Positions 4,101 to 59,807 of a stretch of DNA of 64,000 nt are shown in pieces. The position numbers were made by a program, and so were the translations under genes. The DNA lies in assembly GCA_965261335.1 (NCBI GenBank), contig OZ253450.1:2519492-2583491 (forward strand), given 5' to 3'. Source of the stretch: Candidatus Spongiihabitans sp. (GTDB lineage: Bacteria; Pseudomonadota; Gammaproteobacteria; Arenicellales; Poriferihabitantaceae). Below the pieces are notes generated by a model that did not search any database, was not told the DNA's origin, and worked only from the letters and a program-made list of their open reading frames with translations. Numbering within the stretch: position 1 is the stretch's first letter; every line of letters starts with the position of its first letter.

Positions 4101-4191
4101 ATTTGGGGGGGTGGGTTTTCCGCCAGCGTAACCTGCGAGGGTTTCTTGCACAATCTCTTTGCACGGATGAAGCCACGCTTCCGATAATGAT

Positions 4192-4242
4192 ACCCGCAGG
4201 GCACAAGTACCCACAGGGCACAAGTACCCACAGGGCACAAGC
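4192..4242. repeat. Three tandem copies of a 17-nt unit ACCC(G/A)CAGGGCACAAG(T/C)
   Basis: Read directly: 4192-4208, 4209-4225, 4226-4242. The same 17-mer occurs as insertions in the IS5 copies at 36901, 53464, 58684 and 59248. Confidence 0.9.
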
Positions 4243-34204: not shown

Positions 34205-35328
34205 GCGGCTTAGTGGCCGCCGGCGGGGTCGGTGTTGGACACATCATTACACCCGTAATGATACCGCTCATATTCGCTTTACCCGTCTTGTTACGACTCA
34301 CCAAAACACCCACAGCAGCCGCTAGTCTTGTTGGTGGCTACATTCTTTCAGCAAGTTATGGTTTGTTTTTCGGCGTTGCTAACTTGAGTGGGTTTTGGGT
34401 CGGGTTGGCTACATGGTTCGGTCTTGCGCTCTGTTTGTCCATTCCTTGGCTTTTCGCTCACATCCGATGGACTGGACTGATTATTGCCATTACCCTGATG
34501 TCAATTCCGCCGTTAGGCTATTTATCCCACGTTTCACCCTTAATGGGAGCGGCCTATCTGTTCCCCGGATTTGGCTTCATCGGACTATTCTTATGCGCTA
34601 TCGTATTTCAAGTACTCTACATCCTCAAATGGCCGTATAGCGTCAGCATTGTCTGCGCCATGCTGATTTCAACCGTTGTTTTTCAAGTGCCCACAACCGC
34701 AACATCACCAACCAGCATAAGTGGGTTGCATCCACGCGACATGCAAGTCGGACCGCTTATTAGCAACAGCAATTGCTGCGAAACAGATTACCAAGCGCGA
34801 CAAGCCTTGTTTGATAATTTATTGAGATACGAGACAGCCAGCGGTATCCCAATTTACCCCGAAGCCAGTGCTGGAACACTCAGCAAAATAACAACAAACG
34901 AATTAACTCGTTTCGCCCAAGCGACCAATCAGCCATTCTTCGCCGGTGCGGAGGAGCGGGTAGGGCGGTCGTATAACAACGTTTTGATTCACGTCGATCA
35001 CCAATCTGCAAACATTGTATATCGACAGCGATTGCCCGCTCCTTGGTTTATGTGGCGCGGACAAGATAAACCAAGATTCTTTCGCGCCGGGCTGGGACGA
35101 GCCGCAACCTTCGCTTACCAAAGAAAACGGATCGGCACATTAATTTGCTATGAACTCAGCACAACATGGCTCGTCTTCGACACCCACTTTGAATCTCCCG
35201 ATGCGGTCATTGCTATCAGCAATCTATGGTGGGCAAAAAAGACTAATTTGGCTTATCTAATGAGACTCCAAAGCGCAGCATGGTCGCGTTTGTTTGGCGT
35301 ACCCTACATATTTAGTCTGAACACATAA
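34171..35328 (+). CDS. Polytopic membrane protein with a C-terminal CN-hydrolase (Lnt-like) domain; Ti-type TraB position
   Basis: About 6 TM helices, then IYPEASAG (Lnt Glu motif) and GTLICYE (Lnt Cys motif). The Lys-motif region reads VYRQRLPAPWF. Confidence 0.6.
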   Translation: MDRIKHHAPFLSGLVAAGGVGVGHIITPVMIPLIFALPVLLRLTKTPTAAASLVGGYILSASYGLFFGVANLSGFWVGLATWFGLALCLSIPWLFAHIRWTGLIIAITLMSIPPLGYLSHVSPLMGAAYLFPGFGFIGLFLCAIVFQVLYILKWPYSVSIVCAMLISTVVFQVPTTATSPTSISGLHPRDMQVGPLISNSNCCETDYQARQALFDNLLRYETASGIPIYPEASAGTLSKITTNELTRFAQATNQPFFAGAEERVGRSYNNVLIHVDHQSANIVYRQRLPAPWFMWRGQDKPRFFRAGLGRAATFAYQRKRIGTLICYELSTTWLVFDTHFESPDAVIAISNLWWAKKTNLAYLMRLQSAAWSRLFGVPYIFSLNT

Positions 35329-35329
35329 T

Positions 35330-35809
35330 ATGGTGGCTTCAACAATCCTCGCATTAGCCCTTCAATGTGCGCCACAGGTCGCACCAATGACCATTTTGCA
35401 TATTGTCTCCGTTGAAGCGGCGCGATTACCAAACGGCGGGTTTAATGTTAATTCTCTTCATCTAAATCATGGGCAACTTAAGCAACAACCTGCATCCAAA
35501 AGCGAAGCACTGGCACTTGCAACACAACATATTGCCCGAGACAAAAGCGTTGATGTCGGATTGATGCAAATTAACAGTGCCAATTTACCATCGCTCAATC
35601 TATCGTTAGCAGATGCCCTCGATCCCTGCACAAACATTCGTGCTGGTGCAAAGATTTTAACGGACTTTTACTTAAGAACAGATCGCAAAGAACCACAACA
35701 AATACGCCTACTTAAAGCATTGTCAGCGTACAACACAGGAGATTATCAAAAAGGTTTTCGGAATGGGTATGTTGTGCGTTATCTACGGATTGCGGCAAAG
35801 AAAAAGTAG
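35330..35809 (+). CDS. VirB1-like soluble lytic transglycosylase
   Basis: SVEAA catalytic Glu region, GLMQINS, AYNTG. Confidence 0.85.
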   Translation: MVASTILALALQCAPQVAPMTILHIVSVEAARLPNGGFNVNSLHLNHGQLKQQPASKSEALALATQHIARDKSVDVGLMQINSANLPSLNLSLADALDPCTNIRAGAKILTDFYLRTDRKEPQQIRLLKALSAYNTGDYQKGFRNGYVVRYLRIAAKKK

Positions 35810-35975
35810 CGCACCGCGGCGACTGTCGGGCAATAAAATCAGCCGAAACGGGTGAGTGGTACAAACTGGAAATTCGGGTAGAGGTCGATATTCAGATGAT
35901 TATTCGCTGGGCAGAGCGGGGGGGATGGCAGCGACCAGAAAGACGATGGTAACCACGATACGGCATCACAATAAA

Positions 35976-36599
35976 TTAAATCCTTTTTTTAGCTCGCTTG
36001 GCTTCAGTTTTCAACCGCTCTAACAGATTCAGCGTCTTGCTAAATTGTTGGCGATGCGTTGTTTTGCTACTTCTTGAATTACGACGCAAATGTGCCGACT
36101 TACTTATTTCCATGAAATTTGATAACACGCAGTTTGTCTTGTCTCCATCAATAAAAACGATGCACTTTCCTTTTGATAGTTGACCATGCGCTTTCTCCCA
36201 CAACCAGCCGTGCTTTAACCGGTATCTTGTCGGTGCATCCGTATAGGGATTTCGCTCGGCTACCTTAATCTCAATATAACCGTCTTTGCGCACACGTTCG
36301 GCATACATCTTTGTGCGATTTTTAGGTATGTTGCCAGCACGAAACGAACCACTATTTCCTTTAACCAAACCAGTGCCCTTACAGCGCACCGTCCATGGGA
36401 CATGCCCAGACACAAACCGCCCACTTCGCCCGGACACTATTTGGTGCTTGCGCAACAGATACCTAATTTGGTTGACCGTATAATTGCGATTGAAATATTG
36501 ATTAAAGCAATTCGTCAATTCTTGTCTATTCGACACCCGCTCATAGTAGTGACACAGAAAGCTAATCTGCTCGGTTTGCTTGTGAGATACTCCTTTCAA
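35976..36599 (-). CDS. HNH homing-type endonuclease
   Basis: C-terminal HNH_3-like IVFIDGDKTNCVLSNFMEISKSAHL. Confidence 0.65.
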   Translation of the reverse strand: MKGVSHKQTEQISFLCHYYERVSNRQELTNCFNQYFNRNYTVNQIRYLLRKHQIVSGRSGRFVSGHVPWTVRCKGTGLVKGNSGSFRAGNIPKNRTKMYAERVRKDGYIEIKVAERNPYTDAPTRYRLKHGWLWEKAHGQLSKGKCIVFIDGDKTNCVLSNFMEISKSAHLRRNSRSSKTTHRQQFSKTLNLLERLKTEAKRAKKRI

Positions 36600-36658: not shown

Positions 36659-37926
36659 GAGACCTTTGCATAAATCCACCCGGGGCACCACTTAAAATGG
36701 TAAAATAGCGTTCATTCAATAAACCCTTGAGGATACCGTCAAATGTCTTGGAAATAAACCGCCCAATACGCGTTCGCAGATGCTCTTTTAATTGAGCATA
36801 AGTCATTGTCCAAACTAGATGATGTGCATGAAATTATCGATTGGAAACAGATCGAAAAAACGCTCAGCCATCTTTATGCTAGCAAGCGTGGTGTGCCGGC
36901 ACTTGTGCCCTTTGGCTATGCCCACCTTTGATGATGTTTAAGATACTGATTTTACAGGCGTAGTATAACTTAAGCGATGAAGCCTTAGAAGAACAGATAG
37001 CCCGGGATTTAATGTTCCGCCGGTTTATTGGTTTGAGTCTCAGTGATGCAGTACCCGATCATTCCACTATTTGGCGGTTTAGGAACTTATTACACACCGA
37101 AAATCTGCTTGATTCTTTATTGGTGCAGATCAATCATCTCGCTAAAAACAGTCTTATTGTTGCCACAGGCTCGGTCAATATTATCGATGCGACTGTGATT
37201 GAGGCGAAGCAATGCCGTTCTAAAAAGAACAAACAAGGCACAATACCCAAGACCGGAAGCGGCATGGAACGTGAAAACGGCATCCGATGGCAGGCGTAAA
37301 AGCACCTACGGATTTAAGATGCACGCCAATACCGATGAAGATGGTTTTATCAAGAAAATGACCTATACGCCTGGCAATGTGCATGATTCACAGGAGTTTG
37401 AACATCTGTTAGGCGATAGGCACGGACAAGTTTACGCAGACAGTGCCTATGCCAACAAAGACAATGACGAGAAACTGGGTAAAGAAAACAATAGAATCCT
37501 GCACCGAGCTTATCGCAACACACCATTAACGGAGCAACAAAAAGCACTGAATAAAATGTATAGCAGTGTCCGCTATGTGGTTGAACGCACCTTTGGCTTA
37601 CTCAAACTGCATCACGGATTAGGCAAGGCAAGATACATGGGGTTAGCCAGAAACAAAACCCGTGCACATCTGATTGCCATGAGCCATAACCTTAAAACTG
37701 GGATGAATATTTTCAAAGAACTGCAACGTTTAAAGGAGAGTTGTGCCTAAATGGGCAATAAAACAGATTAAAACCCACTAAAAGTGGTTAAAAGTGCCGA
37801 AATAGCGGCTTTTTTGGTGTCGTATTGATGATTGAGAGAACATGGGCGAAAAAATGAGGCAAATTTATAAAAAATCGCGTTGTTTGTGAGTTGCGAGGGG
37901 TGTTTTGTGGATTATGCAAAAGTCTC
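36659..37926 (+). mobile_element. IS5-family IS, copy A (transposase disrupted)
   Basis: Terminal inverted repeats GAGACCTTTGCATAAATCCAC / GTGGATTATGCAAAAGTCTC. The transposase is split (37012-37299, 37199-37750) and the N-terminus is broken by stops and a 17-nt insert at 36901-36917. No flanking target duplication was seen. Confidence 0.85.
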
Positions 37927-51986: not shown

Positions 51987-53008
51987 ATAGAGCGGTCAAC
52001 GTATTTAATCAATGGATACGTTTCCCCAAAGAAGCGCGTGCGATGTTTTATGAAGTCATGGAAGCGCAATTGGAGGCTGGTTTGCCCTTAAAGAAAGTGT
52101 TTGAAGTTTTACATCGTGATTTGAACGTATCGCCTGAAATAACGCGGGTGTCTGCTGCTGGCTATCAAGCGATCAGTCAAGGTCGGTTAGGCACTGAGGG
52201 ACTCGCTGATTGTAACTTGCTGCCGGTGGATGAGGCTTATTTGCTCATTGCGGCGGAAAAAAAAGATGTCTTGATTCAAGTTTTGCGCCAACTGCGTGAG
52301 CGCGCAGAAGCGGATGCTACGTTCTGCCAAGATGTCATTGTAGCGAATTTGTATTATATCGTCTTGGTGTCGCTACTGGGTTACATGGCACTTAAAACCA
52401 AGGATCTCGCAACCGCTTTCGGTAATTTTGTTTCATTGGATGACAATCCAGCCTATCAATTAAGTCTAACACTCAATGAGTATGGGACTCCGGTCGCGTT
52501 TAGTGTCGTTATCATTAGCATCTTCGTTTGGTTTTGTGCCAATCATTGGTATCACCCATTGCGCCGTTATGTGTGGTTTTTTTCAACGGATATACAGCTG
52601 CAAATTGGTGTTAAATTTAGTGCGTTATCGAGTGCTTTTTATTCAATTGGCGCAACACACAGTGATGTGTTGCAAGCGGCGACAGCCGTTTTTCATGGCT
52701 CGGGCTTTATGCGCGGTGCGCTTGCAGATTTGATTGCTCGGTATGAGTCTGAAGGTGATTCGTATAATGAGGCGTTAGGTGACACCGTGTTGCATCCGGA
52801 CATTGCGATGGCAATTATGGCAATGACACCGGCGGAGGATCGGGCGGCTTTTTCTCGCGCACATGTTGCTGCCGAAAAGTTGCAAATCAGTTTGATTAAA
52901 CAACGCCACGGCAAAGCAAAATTGTTAGTGCAATTGGTATTGCTGGGGGCAATTAGTTATATGCTTCTGACGATGTTGATTGGTTTATATAGTGAGACTT
53001 TTGCATAA
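51974..53008 (+). CDS. pilR: PilR-type (GspF/PilC family) platform protein; last 4 codons supplied by IS5 copy B
   Basis: Two GspF-like repeats with TM helices. The IS end begins at 52994, so the tail ETFA is IS-encoded. The native tail IYNF-stop is readable after the IS at 54276. Confidence 0.8.
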   Translation: MGSLNRAVNVFNQWIRFPKEARAMFYEVMEAQLEAGLPLKKVFEVLHRDLNVSPEITRVSAAGYQAISQGRLGTEGLADCNLLPVDEAYLLIAAEKKDVLIQVLRQLRERAEADATFCQDVIVANLYYIVLVSLLGYMALKTKDLATAFGNFVSLDDNPAYQLSLTLNEYGTPVAFSVVIISIFVWFCANHWYHPLRRYVWFFSTDIQLQIGVKFSALSSAFYSIGATHSDVLQAATAVFHGSGFMRGALADLIARYESEGDSYNEALGDTVLHPDIAMAIMAMTPAEDRAAFSRAHVAAEKLQISLIKQRHGKAKLLVQLVLLGAISYMLLTMLIGLYSETFA

Positions 53009-54270
53009 TCCACAAAACACCCCTCGCAACTCACAAACAACGTGATTTTTTATAAATTTGCCTCATTTTTTCGCCCATGTTCTCTCAATCATCAATACGA
53101 CACCAAAAAAGCCTCTATTTCGGCACTTTTAACCACTTTTAGTGGGTTTTTATCTGTTTTATTGCCCATTTAGGCACAACTCTCCTTTAAACGTTGCAGT
53201 TCTTTGAAAATATTCATCCCAGTTTTAAGGTTATGGCTCATGGCAATCAGATGTGCGCGGGGTTTGTTTCTGGCTAACCCCATGTATCTTGCCTTGCCTA
53301 ATCCGTGATGCAGTTTGAGCAAACCAAAGGTGCGTTCAACCACATAGCGGACACTGCTATACATTTTATTCAGTGCTTTTTGTTGCTCCGTTAATGGTGT
53401 GTTGCGATAAGCTCGGTGCAGGATTCTATTGTCTGCTTTACCCAGTTTCTCGTCATTGTTGGCACTTGTGCCCTGTGGGTATAGGCACTGTCTGCGTAAA
53501 CTTGTCCGTGCCTATCGCCTAACAGATGTTCAAACTCCCCAAAATCATGCAATGAATCATGCACATTGCCAGGCGTAGTGGTCATTTTCTTGATAACCAT
53601 CTTCATCGGTATTGGCGTGCAACTTAAATCCGTAGGTACTTTTACGCCTGCCATCGGATGCCGTTTTCACGTTCCATGCCGCTTCTGGGTCTTGGGTATT
53701 GTCGCCTTGTTTGTTCTTTTTAGAACGGCATTGCTTCGCCTCAATCACAGTCGCATCGATAATATTGACCGAGCCTGTGGCAACAATAAGACTGTTTTTA
53801 GCGAGATGGTTATTGATCTGCACCAATAAAGAATCAAGCAGATTTTCGGTGTGTAATAAGTTCCTAAACCGCCAAATAGTGGAATGATCGGGTACTGCAT
53901 CACTGAGACTCAAACCAATAAACCGGCGGAACATTAAATCCCGGGCTATCTGTTCTTCTAAGGCTTCATCGCTTAAGTTATACCACGCCTGTAAAATCAG
54001 TATCTTAAACATCATCAAAGGTGGGTATGCTGGCACACCGCGCTTGCTGGCATAAAGATGGCTGAGCGTTTTTTCGATCTGTTTCCAATCGATAATTTCA
54101 TGCACATCATCTAGTTTGGACAATGACTTATGCTCAATTAAAAGGGCATCTGCGAACGAGTATTGGGCGGTTTGTTTCCAAGACATTTGACGGTATCCTC
54201 AAGGGTTTATTGAATGAACGCTATTTTACCATTTTAAGTGGGGCCCTGGGTGGATTTATGCAAAGGTCTC
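52994..54270 (-). mobile_element. IS5-family IS, copy B (transposase frameshifted), simple insertion with a 5-bp flanking direct repeat ATAGT
   Basis: Same inverted repeats as copy A. ATAGT at 52989-52993 and 54271-54275. ORF fragments at 53557-54186, 53391-53654 and 53170-53364. 17-nt insert at 53464-53480. Confidence 0.88.
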
Positions 54271-54313
54271 ATAGTATTTATAATTTTTAATTTTTTAATA
54301 GCGAGGTTTTATT

Positions 54314-58207: not shown

Positions 58208-59397
58208 GAGACTTTTGCATAATCCACAAAACACCCCTCGCAACTCACAAACAACGCGATTTTTTATAAATTTGCCTCATTTTTTCGCCCATGTTCTCTC
58301 AATCATCAATACGACACCAAAAATGCCGCTATTTCGGCACTTTTAACCACTTTTAGTGGGTTTTTATCTGTTTTATTGCCCATTTAGGCACAACTCTCCT
58401 TTAAACGTTGCAGTTCTTTGAAAATATTCATTCCAGTTTTAAGGTTATGGCTCATGGCAATCAGATGTACACGGGTTTTGTTTCTGGCTAACCCCATGTA
58501 TCTTGCCTTGCCTAATCCGTGATGCAGTTTGAGCAAACCAAAGGTGCGTTCAACCACATAGCGGACACTGCTATACATTTTATTCAGTGCTTTTTGTTGC
58601 TCCGTTAATGGTGTGTTGCGATAAGCTCGGTGCAGGATTCTATTGTTTTCTTTACCCAGTTTCTGGTCATTGTCTTTGTTGGCACTTGTGCCCTTTGGGT
58701 ATAGGCACTGTCTGCGTAAACTTGTCCGTGCCTATCGCCTAACAGATGTTCAAACTCCCCAAAATCATGCAATGAATCATGCACATTACCATGCGTATAG
58801 GTCATTTTCTTGATAACCATCTTCATCGGTATTGGCGTGCAGCTTAAATCCGTAGGTACTTTTACGCCTGCCATCGGATGCCGTTTTCACGTTCCATGCC
58901 GCTTCCGGTCTTGGGTATTGTGCCTTGTTTGTTCTTTTTAGAACGGCATTGCTTCGCCTCAATCACAGTCGCATCGATAATATTGACCGAGCCTGTGGCA
59001 ACAATAAGACTGTTTTTAGCGAGATGGTTATTGATCTGCATCAATAAAGAATCAAGCAGATTTTCGGTGTGTAATAAGTTCCTAAACCGCCAAATAGTGG
59101 AATGATCGGGTACTGCATCACTGAGACTCAAACCAATAAACCGGCGGAACATTAAATCCCGGGCTATCTGTTCTTCATAAGGCTTCATCGCTTAAGTTAT
59201 ACCGTGCCTGTAAAATCAGTATCTTAAACATCATCAAAGGTGGGCATACCCAAAGGACACAAGTGCTGGCACACCGCGCTTGGAGGCATAAAGATGGCTG
59301 AGCGTTTTTTCGATCTGTTTCCAATCGATAATTTCATGCACATCATCTAGTTTGGACAATGACTTATGCTCAATTAAAAGGGCATCTGCGAACGAGT
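58208..59397 (-). mobile_element. IS5-family IS, copy C (5'-truncated, transposase disrupted)
   Basis: The right inverted repeat is present at 58208. Similarity to copy B stops at about 59397. 17-nt inserts at 58684-58700 and 59248-59264. Confidence 0.85.
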
Positions 59398-59480
59398 ACC
59401 CAAATCCCCAGATAGAGTGGCGCTAGTGCTTCAAGAGCCTGTGAATCCCTCTTTCAAGTCTTATGGCTGGAAATTACAGC

Positions 59481-59593
59481 AGGGGCTTGTCGGAAAATGG
59501 CGTTTTTAGCTTGTTGTGAATATTTAAGTCCTTGTTATTAAACATTTTATTTTCTTAAAATTGGACTGATTTTGAATTAACCGACAAGCCCCT
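59481..59593. mobile_element. 113-bp MITE-like element with 13-bp terminal inverted repeats
   Basis: AGGGGCTTGTCGG (59481-59493) ... CCGACAAGCCCCT (59581-59593), AT-rich interior. A second partial copy is at 634-705. Confidence 0.6.
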
Positions 59594-59807
59594 TAGAGGC
59601 GGTGCCGATAGCACCACAAGCCCGATAAGCACGGGTTAAACGCTTGACCTGCCTGATGCCCAGTTTTAGTTGCTGTGTCGCCCGTGCTTGTGTCAGCCGG
59701 CGACCGATGATGGATTGAATAACCGATATGCGGTGGTCAAGTTCTGTTTTGCTCAATGTAATAATCTCCTCTGTCATAACACTCCTGAATAAGTCAAAAG
59801 GGGACAT
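59577..59807 (-). pseudogene. N-terminal HTH fragment of a transposase (IS481/ISNCY-like)
   Basis: LSKTELDHRISVIQSIIGRRLTQARATQQLKLGIRQVKRLTRAYRACGAIG pattern. The frame is terminated by the MITE end. Confidence 0.5.

Follow-up and report, generated by a model that had tools for sequence, protein, structure and literature searches.

A mosaic of 17-nt inserts in IS5-family copies of Candidatus Spongiihabitans, probably made by recombination between intact and insert-bearing lineages

A 64,000-nt window of a Candidatus Spongiihabitans sp. genome (GenBank assembly GCA_965261335.1, contig OZ253450.1, positions 2,519,492 to 2,583,491) contains three copies, here called A, B and C, of an insertion sequence (IS) of the IS5 family. 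Two sites in its transposase gene are either empty or filled with an insert of 17 nt, hereafter the 17-mer, and the three copies differ in which of the two sites is filled. How did copies of one element come to carry different combinations of the same inserts? The first-pass annotation of the window had offered independent insertion at the same site, precise loss and gene conversion between IS copies as possible answers. The pattern is confirmed in the assembled sequence and is best explained by recombination of intact and insert-bearing IS lineages, an ordinary process. We put the probability that A and B are chimeras of these two lineages, produced by homologous recombination or gene conversion within a history of one filling per site, at about 0.75.

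Two lineages of one IS5-family element

The window sits in one contig of 2.77 Mb, about 26% of which is repeated DNA. In its empty form, the element has one open reading frame (ORF) of 331 aa with the Pfam domains DUF772 (E 5.7e-28) and DDE_Tnp_1 (E 2.6e-23). Its ends are GAGACCTTTGCATAAATCC and GAGACTTTTGCATAATCC, and its terminal inverted repeats begin with GAGAC. With these transposase domains, the inverted repeats and short target duplications, it is an IS5-family element. An alignment of the three copies in the window upholds the pattern described in the first-pass annotation, with inserts at both sites in C, but only at site 2 in A and only at site 1 in B (Table 1). The claims that the two inserts lie in opposite orientation and that each of them shifts the frame were borne out as well. 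The sites had been located correctly, but the insert coordinates were shifted by 1 nt from those found by motif search, because the first base of the insert (T) equals the base after it and both registers fit. The alignment also revealed a 6-nt deletion next to site 1 in copy B, which had gone unmentioned. The 17-mer is far more frequent than expected: the window has seven matches at up to three mismatches against 0.12 expected (none of 100 shuffles reached seven), and a genome-wide count at up to two mismatches gave 82 matches against none for a reversed control. At its transposase 5' end, copy C is cut by an unrelated repeat (..GGGCTTGTCGGAAAATGGCG..; window 59399-59600), which also adjoins other terminal-repeat tips of the genome.

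Table 1. Positions in the window of the IS copies, their two insert sites and a 17-mer array
Feature	Position	Strand	Remarks
IS copy A	36659-37926	+	transposase sense on this strand; probable chimera, without target-site duplication
IS copy B	52994-54270	-	5-bp target-site duplication ATAGT intact at 52989-52993 and 54271-54275
IS copy C	58208-59398	-	filled lineage; truncated at transposase 5' end; pseudogene
Copy A site 2, 17-nt insert	36902-36918	-	variant TAGCCAAAGGGCACAAG, common to 4 doubly filled copies
Copy A site 1, empty (CCTA^TGCC)	37450/37451		intact-lineage markers around: no 12-nt indel, AA present
Copy B site 1, 17-nt insert	53465-53481	-	TACCCACAGGGCACAAG; private 6-nt deletion adjoining
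Copy B site 2, empty (GGGTA^TGCTGG)	54028/54029		
Copy C site 1, 17-nt insert	58685-58701	-	AAA variant
Copy C site 2, 17-nt insert	59247-59263	+	TACCCAAAGGACACAAG
Three head-to-tail 17-mers	4191-4241	+	one GCA and two ACA variants; 12 nt inside a MITE-like tip (..CACAAAGGTCTC)

As the first-pass annotation had proposed, copies were collected from the whole genome and a presence/absence matrix was built for both sites. BLAST detected 76 pieces of the element. Forty of them, of 650 bp or more, were aligned, and 32 of these span both sites. Ten are empty at both sites, 19 are filled at both, and three are mixed, namely A, B and a copy named c1479205, in which site 1 is filled and site 2 lacks the insert and which has its own 17-nt deletion between TGCT repeats. 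Eight further copies span one site only and are filled there without exception. Thus, all four combinations of the two sites exist, and the claim that one insertion history without recombination cannot produce the pattern is sustained.

The empty copies form a young lineage with an intact transposase. Eight of the ten are identical over 1256 bp, an intact 331-aa transposase is encoded by all nine full-length empty copies translated or compared, and eight of nine full-length empty copies are flanked by a 5-bp target duplication (the ninth by a 4-bp match). The filled copies form an older lineage of apparent pseudogenes, with the insert TACCCAMAGGGCACAAG at two A^TGC sites in opposite orientation and hence a twice-broken frame. 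All nine doubly filled copies translated (copy C and eight others) are pseudogenes in fragments. The filled form did transpose, since a 5-bp target duplication survives in three of its 11 full-length doubly filled copies; such a duplication is also present in B and absent in A. Intact copies presumably drove the multiplication of the filled form in trans. The distribution of variable sites over the codon positions (34/30/50 in filled and 33/22/63 in empty copies) is ambiguous and gives no support for read-through of the insert. In its broken ORFs, intact ends, target duplications in 3/11 copies and copy number (19 against 10 autonomous ones), the filled lineage resembles non-autonomous IS derivatives of the type of miniature inverted-repeat transposable elements (MITEs). 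Unlike these, it has kept its full length and is disabled by two tiny inserts, with no internal deletion.

Each site was most likely filled once, long ago, because the insert variants are site-specific and the doubly filled form is common to two related genomes. In this genome, site-1 inserts comprise 20 of the ACA type, four of the AAA type and two others, whereas all 25 site-2 inserts are of the AAA type (Fisher 1e-10). The doubly filled form, with identical variants and linked indels, is also found in a genome of the same genus (G006) and in one of another genus of the same family (G012). Among 78 related loci from other assemblies, which belong to sponge-associated metagenome-assembled genomes (MAGs) of Candidatus Spongiihabitans and Poriferihabitaceae, one Pseudohongiella MAG and one unclassified gammaproteobacterium, 17 could be scored at both sites: four are empty at both, seven are filled at site 1 only, five at both and one at site 2 only (L058). 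The insert is absent from SUP05-type relatives, which are more distant (about 74% protein identity). In the simplest history, site 1 would have been filled first and site 2 later, and the doubly filled element would then have spread. A site-1-only intermediate probably existed, since such copies occur in other genomes. In L058, the empty site 1 reads TATA instead of TATG and lies amid filled-lineage markers, and the right terminal repeat of the same copy contains a 17-mer; the insert at site 1 may have been lost almost precisely, through deletion of 17 nt between CC repeats. An intact copy with 98.5% DNA identity to the IS of this genome was found in a genome of another genus, and filled or partial copies occur in MAGs labelled Pseudohongiella, Ekhidna and Nitrospinales (among loci L009, L016, L052, L062 and L071). 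This distribution reflects either recent horizontal spread among sponge-associated bacteria or cross-talk in binning.

Mosaic structure of copies A and B

In both mixed copies of the window, the inserts change lineage together with the markers around them. Copy A has empty-lineage alleles at 12 consecutive markers (alignment columns 407-661), including the empty site 1, a 12-nt indel and an AA indel, and filled-lineage alleles at 18 of the 19 markers between column 709 and the end, the filled site 2 among them. Its filled-lineage part starts about 250 bp from the empty site 1 toward the transposase 5' end. In the end segment, A shows 0/241 differences from the filled copy c1419715 against 9/241 from the empty lineage, and its site-2 insert is a TAGCC variant private to one subgroup of filled copies. 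Copy B has an intact-lineage backbone with a filled-lineage tract of about 220-290 bp around site 1. Filled-lineage alleles occupy 10 of 13 markers in columns 423-661 and empty-lineage alleles all 12 markers rightward, where two segments differ from empty copies at 0/268 and 1/241 positions. The filled site 1 of B comes with the 12-nt and 2-nt indels of the filled lineage.

Fresh insertion or precise loss would leave the adjoining markers unaltered, and the switch of markers contradicts both. Recombination is therefore favoured over them, as linked single-nucleotide polymorphisms (SNPs) and indels change lineage together with the insert. Among the three answers offered at the outset, gene conversion or another form of recombination thus holds. 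Independent insertion is contradicted because site 2 of A lies in the segment that is identical to c1419715 and carries the private variant of that copy, and because site 1 of B brings the filled-lineage indels with it; precise loss is contradicted in A by the empty-lineage markers that surround its vacant site 1. The first-pass annotation had named, as a result that would speak against its claim, a phylogeny of the IS fully compatible with one insertion per site plus one recombination event and no further polymorphism. One insertion per site plus recombination does fit, whereas further polymorphism is present and more than one recombination event is needed. In this history, A would be a filled copy that took up an empty-lineage tract around site 1, B an empty copy that took up a filled-lineage tract around the same site, and C an ordinary filled copy. 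The mechanism would be RecA-type recombination. For B, it would have proceeded without net crossover, by conversion or an even number of exchanges, because its target duplication is intact.

Exchange between IS copies is common, since indel markers reticulate across 39 distinct copies from five genomes. Mosaic IS copies are known to arise by recombination or conversion (a topic of PMC11708052), and the present case is alike in its block-wise exchange of linked variants between paralogous copies and in the loss of target duplications from many old copies, here 8/11 filled ones. It differs from the usual mosaic IS in that the exchanged tract carries a discrete 17-nt insert which decides whether the transposase frame is open, so that recombination reshuffles dead and live transposase segments among the copies of an IS-laden symbiont-type genome.

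Under a model with two breakpoints, 34 of the 39 markers of A and 33 of the 37 markers of B are accounted for, and each fit was matched by only one of 2000 shuffles, although the parents in this test were nearest neighbours picked after the fact and its significance is inflated. Several other points also weigh against the chimeric origin of A and B. When other proxy parents were used (c34399 and c1419715), the block fit of B was matched by 137 of 2000 shuffles. Few SNPs split the lineages and much of the signal comes from three to four indels, of which the 12-nt one is a near-tandem duplication that could recur. Copies filled at site 1 only are frequent elsewhere (7/17 loci and one contig in run X6), and B could in part descend from such a lineage. 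Copy A, moreover, lacks a target duplication.

How A and B are related to each other is a further question. They lie 15 kb apart in inverted orientation and have opposite alleles at 27 of 38 markers, and the borders of their tracts fall in the same intervals (columns 419-443, 24 nt, and 661-709, 48 nt). As a lead only, a tract of about 250 bp may have been swapped between A and B themselves; the complementarity is, however, equalled by 3 of 38 circular shifts, and the same overlap arises in 1.8% of random shuffles. Two unconnected, non-reciprocal conversions are quite possible instead, if somewhat short of an even chance: B would then be an empty copy converted by a filled or a site-1-only copy, and A a filled copy converted by an empty one. 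The block structures of A and of B are each established separately, B keeps its target duplication, donors are plentiful (10 empty and 19 filled copies), and the test of complementarity is weak, whereas the coincidence of both borders within short intervals and the position of A and B as inverted neighbours argue for a connection. A single crossover between the two copies that inverted the intervening 15 kb was rejected, as a test with swapped flanks gave no matching 5-mers and the duplication of B is intact.

Complementary alleles and coinciding borders are also what a phase switch in the assembly would be expected to leave, and in this respect they, too, weigh against a real exchange. Reads of two similar IS copies would have been mis-threaded and have yielded complementary chimeras that are not present in the cell. 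The genome appears to be metagenome-derived, the related records being MAGs. Such an artefact is nevertheless unlikely: the element is only 1.3 kb long, about 40 copies with private differences in each were resolved in one 2.77-Mb contig, mixed states are also found in independently assembled genomes, and the junctions between flank and IS at locus A are the same in three runs from three studies, although the Logan contigs reach just 28-40 nt into the IS. A 17-mer that is active in this genome is a still more improbable source of the mosaic, by fresh site-specific gain (site 1 of B, site 2 of A) or by precise excision (site 1 of A, site 2 of B). At least nine different sites have been entered by it, most of them with filled and empty alleles, it has a target preference for A^T, and the possible deletion at site 1 of L058 would fit excision. 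Still, in A and B 7-12 linked markers around the site change lineage with the insert, the site-2 insert of A belongs to a variant restricted to one filled subgroup, and repeated insertion from a common pool would not be expected to give variants specific to each site. Recombination between the two lineages thus stays the preferred explanation of the mosaic.

The 17-mer outside the IS5-family element

The broader value of the locus lies in the 17-mer. Many unrelated sites exist both with and without it, it occurs in several genomes and many metagenomes, and nearly always it lies in transposable elements or in hairpins of repetitive extragenic palindromic (REP) elements. Genome-wide, 97 matches were found at up to three mismatches, 51 inside this IS and 46 outside. 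Matches at 2-3 mismatches included false positives, namely TACCCTGATGGCACAAG, which is an in-frame segment native to IS30, and one end of an ISL3-like element. Most outside matches lie 12 nt inside the tip of MITE-like ends that share the tip of the IS family, in the order GAGACCTTTGCA, 17-mer, TAATT. The same MITE ends also occur without the insert, and elements with neither, one or both ends filled are all present. In two loci of another genome (L058 and L069), the right terminal repeat of the IS itself is filled at the equivalent point. The tip of 12 nt, GAGACCTTTGCA, is common to several MITE families; another abundant one, GAGACTGTGCAA, is present about 100 times in the genome. Besides the array in the window (Table 1), there is a two-copy array of 17-mers at genome position 2312739, and a three-copy array with a period of 25 in metagenome locus L197. 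At genome positions 1676548, 469185 and 1785822, tips are followed by related longer or shorter pieces starting with CTTGTG or CTTGTA, for example the 21-nt CTTGTGCGTACCCTATGGGTA, and there may be a family of such mini-inserts.

Other transposase genes are hit as well. One of the IS110 family (Pfam DEDD_Tnp_IS110 and Transposase_20) is split by the 17-mer, and taking out the 17 nt restores ..RNKTDKSDAGSIARYC... Filled copies of this gene number three in this genome (747670, 963298 and 1457532) and 11, near-identical to each other, in G006, which also has nine empty ones; G012 has one empty copy. The filled IS110 lineage was either mobilised in trans or its split gene still works. In L107, the only filled IS110 copy that was read, both half-ORFs are open. 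An rve-type transposase gene in G006 (L004, L139) contains two 17-mers in opposite orientation, 153 nt apart, and five such pairs of matches in G006 show the same layout of two inverted inserts as the IS5-family element. An IS30-like gene, present as a single diverged copy at genome position 1126298 (L262), is split at CGAT^GAAC; its frame closes without the insert, and other IS30 copies have no 17-mer.

In this genome and its relatives, nine insertion sites thus lie in identifiable transposable elements, and six of the nine break the transposase gene; a tenth (L094, in G006) adjoins a terminal-repeat tip. The flank is N^TGC at eight of the ten sites and A^TGC at six. The suggestion of the first-pass annotation that the small element may be an agent of IS inactivation agrees with these counts, but hitch-hiking in horizontally spread elements explains them equally well, and there is no sign of such an agent acting here. 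At about even odds, the 17-mers probably reached this genome inside elements that had been hit in another host; alternatively, mobile DNA would be targeted as such. Within the family, the 17-mer is found at up to one mismatch in 8 of 69 genomes including this one, and more than one match is found only in this genome (72), G006 (35) and G012 (14). Across the class, the exact 17-mer occurs in 2 of 401 sampled genomes, again including this one. No larger parent element ending in the 17-mer was found among the 97 matches of the genome or the 80 metagenome loci described below, and none of the four internal IS sites has a hairpin beside its insertion point. Identity with Neisseria-type DNA uptake sequences was considered and dropped, as 12-mer queries gave 0-2 counts per dialect.

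In metagenomes, the exact 17-mer was detected in at least 121 stretches of contigs. Eighty loci (L141-L220) were kept, which give 74 distinct contexts, partly non-independent as several are copies of one repeat family. The base before the 17-mer is A in 61 of these 74 contexts and the base after it T in 44, whereas each base makes up 25% of the flanks overall. The junction A^T is seen in 41/74 contexts against about 6% expected from composition, and position -2 is A in 36/74. Although a collection of this size could give many chance matches, most of them are not due to chance because of this bias of the flanks. In 16 of 71 contexts, against 1 of 67 control positions, the 17-mer stands immediately behind the 5' arm of a hairpin with 7 bp or more. 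These hairpins have at least seven different types of stem, many of them tagged with GTAG as in REP elements, and the 17-mer is often placed between the 5' arm and the loop of REP hairpins. For example, one arm of the REP doublet in L143 has the 17-mer and the other, otherwise identical, does not, and in L165 both arms are filled in mirror image. By their motifs, other metagenome flanks may be transposase genes, and two of five matches in a viral collection fall in what is presumably the N-terminal region of an IS5-type transposase. Covariance models of Rfam assigned 19 loci with the 17-mer to no family, giving five chance-level matches far below gathering scores. No description of the 17-mer was found; the 17-mer, its complement and its 13-nt cores are absent from all papers searched.

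What the 17-mer may be

The 17-mer is a fixed unit of 17 nt with an orientation; it makes no duplication, has A before it, shows filled and empty alleles at many unrelated sites and occasionally forms head-to-tail arrays. It is found in REP hairpins where the 5' arm meets the loop, in terminal inverted repeats 12 nt inside the tip, and in transposase genes, which it disables in at least four IS families. It behaves like a minute mobile unit or a footprint with a cosmopolitan distribution. Tentatively, the 17-mer TACCCACAGGGCACAAG might itself be a mobile unit, the smallest so far, which inserts in one orientation and without duplication after A (mostly A^T), spreads among distant bacteria, prefers repetitive and mobile DNA and makes non-autonomous IS lineages by knocking out the frame, and which would be moved by an HUH-type or other site-specific enzyme; alternatively, a larger element would leave it behind as a fixed abortive product. 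Autonomous movement of the 17-mer would shift the lower size limit of mobile DNA and imply an enzyme with a very small recognition substrate. As a footprint, it would record where an element directed at other mobile DNA has passed. In both cases, it can readily serve as a marker to follow how IS lineages descend and spread horizontally among sponge-associated bacteria.

Among the mechanisms that can be named, transfer as single-stranded DNA by an HUH-type enzyme, with the target read adjoining the insert or by pairing with the element, is rather doubtful, and the same holds for the idea that a larger site-specific element, directed at REPs and terminal repeats by analogy with IS110/IS1111, leaves the 17-mer as its constant abortive product or footprint. 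A short templated filler copied during repair is less likely still, because the borders are identical at every site. A mechanism other than these three, or one that cannot yet be named, is a substantial possibility, though below even odds. Together with the TGC flank, the insert forms GCACAAGTGC.

With IS200/IS605 and with IS91 and Helitrons, the 17-mer shares oriented insertion, the lack of a target duplication, a fixed flanking base and a small hairpin. IS200/IS605 elements have subterminal hairpins at both ends and a fixed target of 4-5 nt on the 5' side. Unlike them, the 17-mer has a single 3-bp hairpin (CCC-ACA-GGG, 6 nt from the 3' end), and only its -1 base is biased. Helitrons insert at A^T and end with CTRR. 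The 17-mer also inserts between A and T without duplication, but it ends with CAAG. To our knowledge, 17 nt is far below the size of any described member of IS200/IS605 or Helitron/IS91. Canonical IS200-type TnpA is encoded in G006 and G012 (E about 1e-40) but not in this genome, and it is strong also in G026 and G032, which are free of the 17-mer. One rve-type copy in G006 lies beside an IS200-type TnpA gene, which was treated as a coincidence since the other four such copies have no nearby TnpA. A Y2 transposase (PF04986) was not found in this genome, G006 or G012, in a search that also gave no signal in control genomes.

IS110/IS1111 elements target REPs, attC sites and the terminal repeats of transposons; they are at least 1.2 kb long and encode a recombinase. 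The 17-mer has the same range of targets, as it lies in REP hairpins and, at a constant distance of about 12 bp from the tip, in terminal inverted repeats. It comprises, however, no more than 17 nt, and an IS110-family transposase gene is itself among the genes hit.

A further comparison is with REP elements and their paired form (REPINs), which are mobilised by REP-associated tyrosine transposases (RAYTs) of the Y1 HUH type (PMC3116915, PMC3337134 and PMC3733652); PMC3733652 also describes REPs as IS targets. The 17-mer is likewise very short, high in copy number, non-coding and without target duplication, and it is found inside GTAG-tagged REP hairpins. Unlike REPs and REPINs, it has no GTAG or CGTC tag and no palindrome of 20-40 nt, and only a 3-bp internal stem (CCC/GGG). 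Moreover, it is a guest in REPs with differing stems and an extra piece in the otherwise identical REP pair of L143. This genome has a RAYT-like Y1 gene at genome positions 34250-36300 (L007), with an open frame of 154 aa, a weak match at E 5.7e-16 and GTAG-tagged REP-like repeats on its flanks; these flanking REPs contain no 17-mer. An intact copy of the IS5-family element is inserted directly beside this gene.

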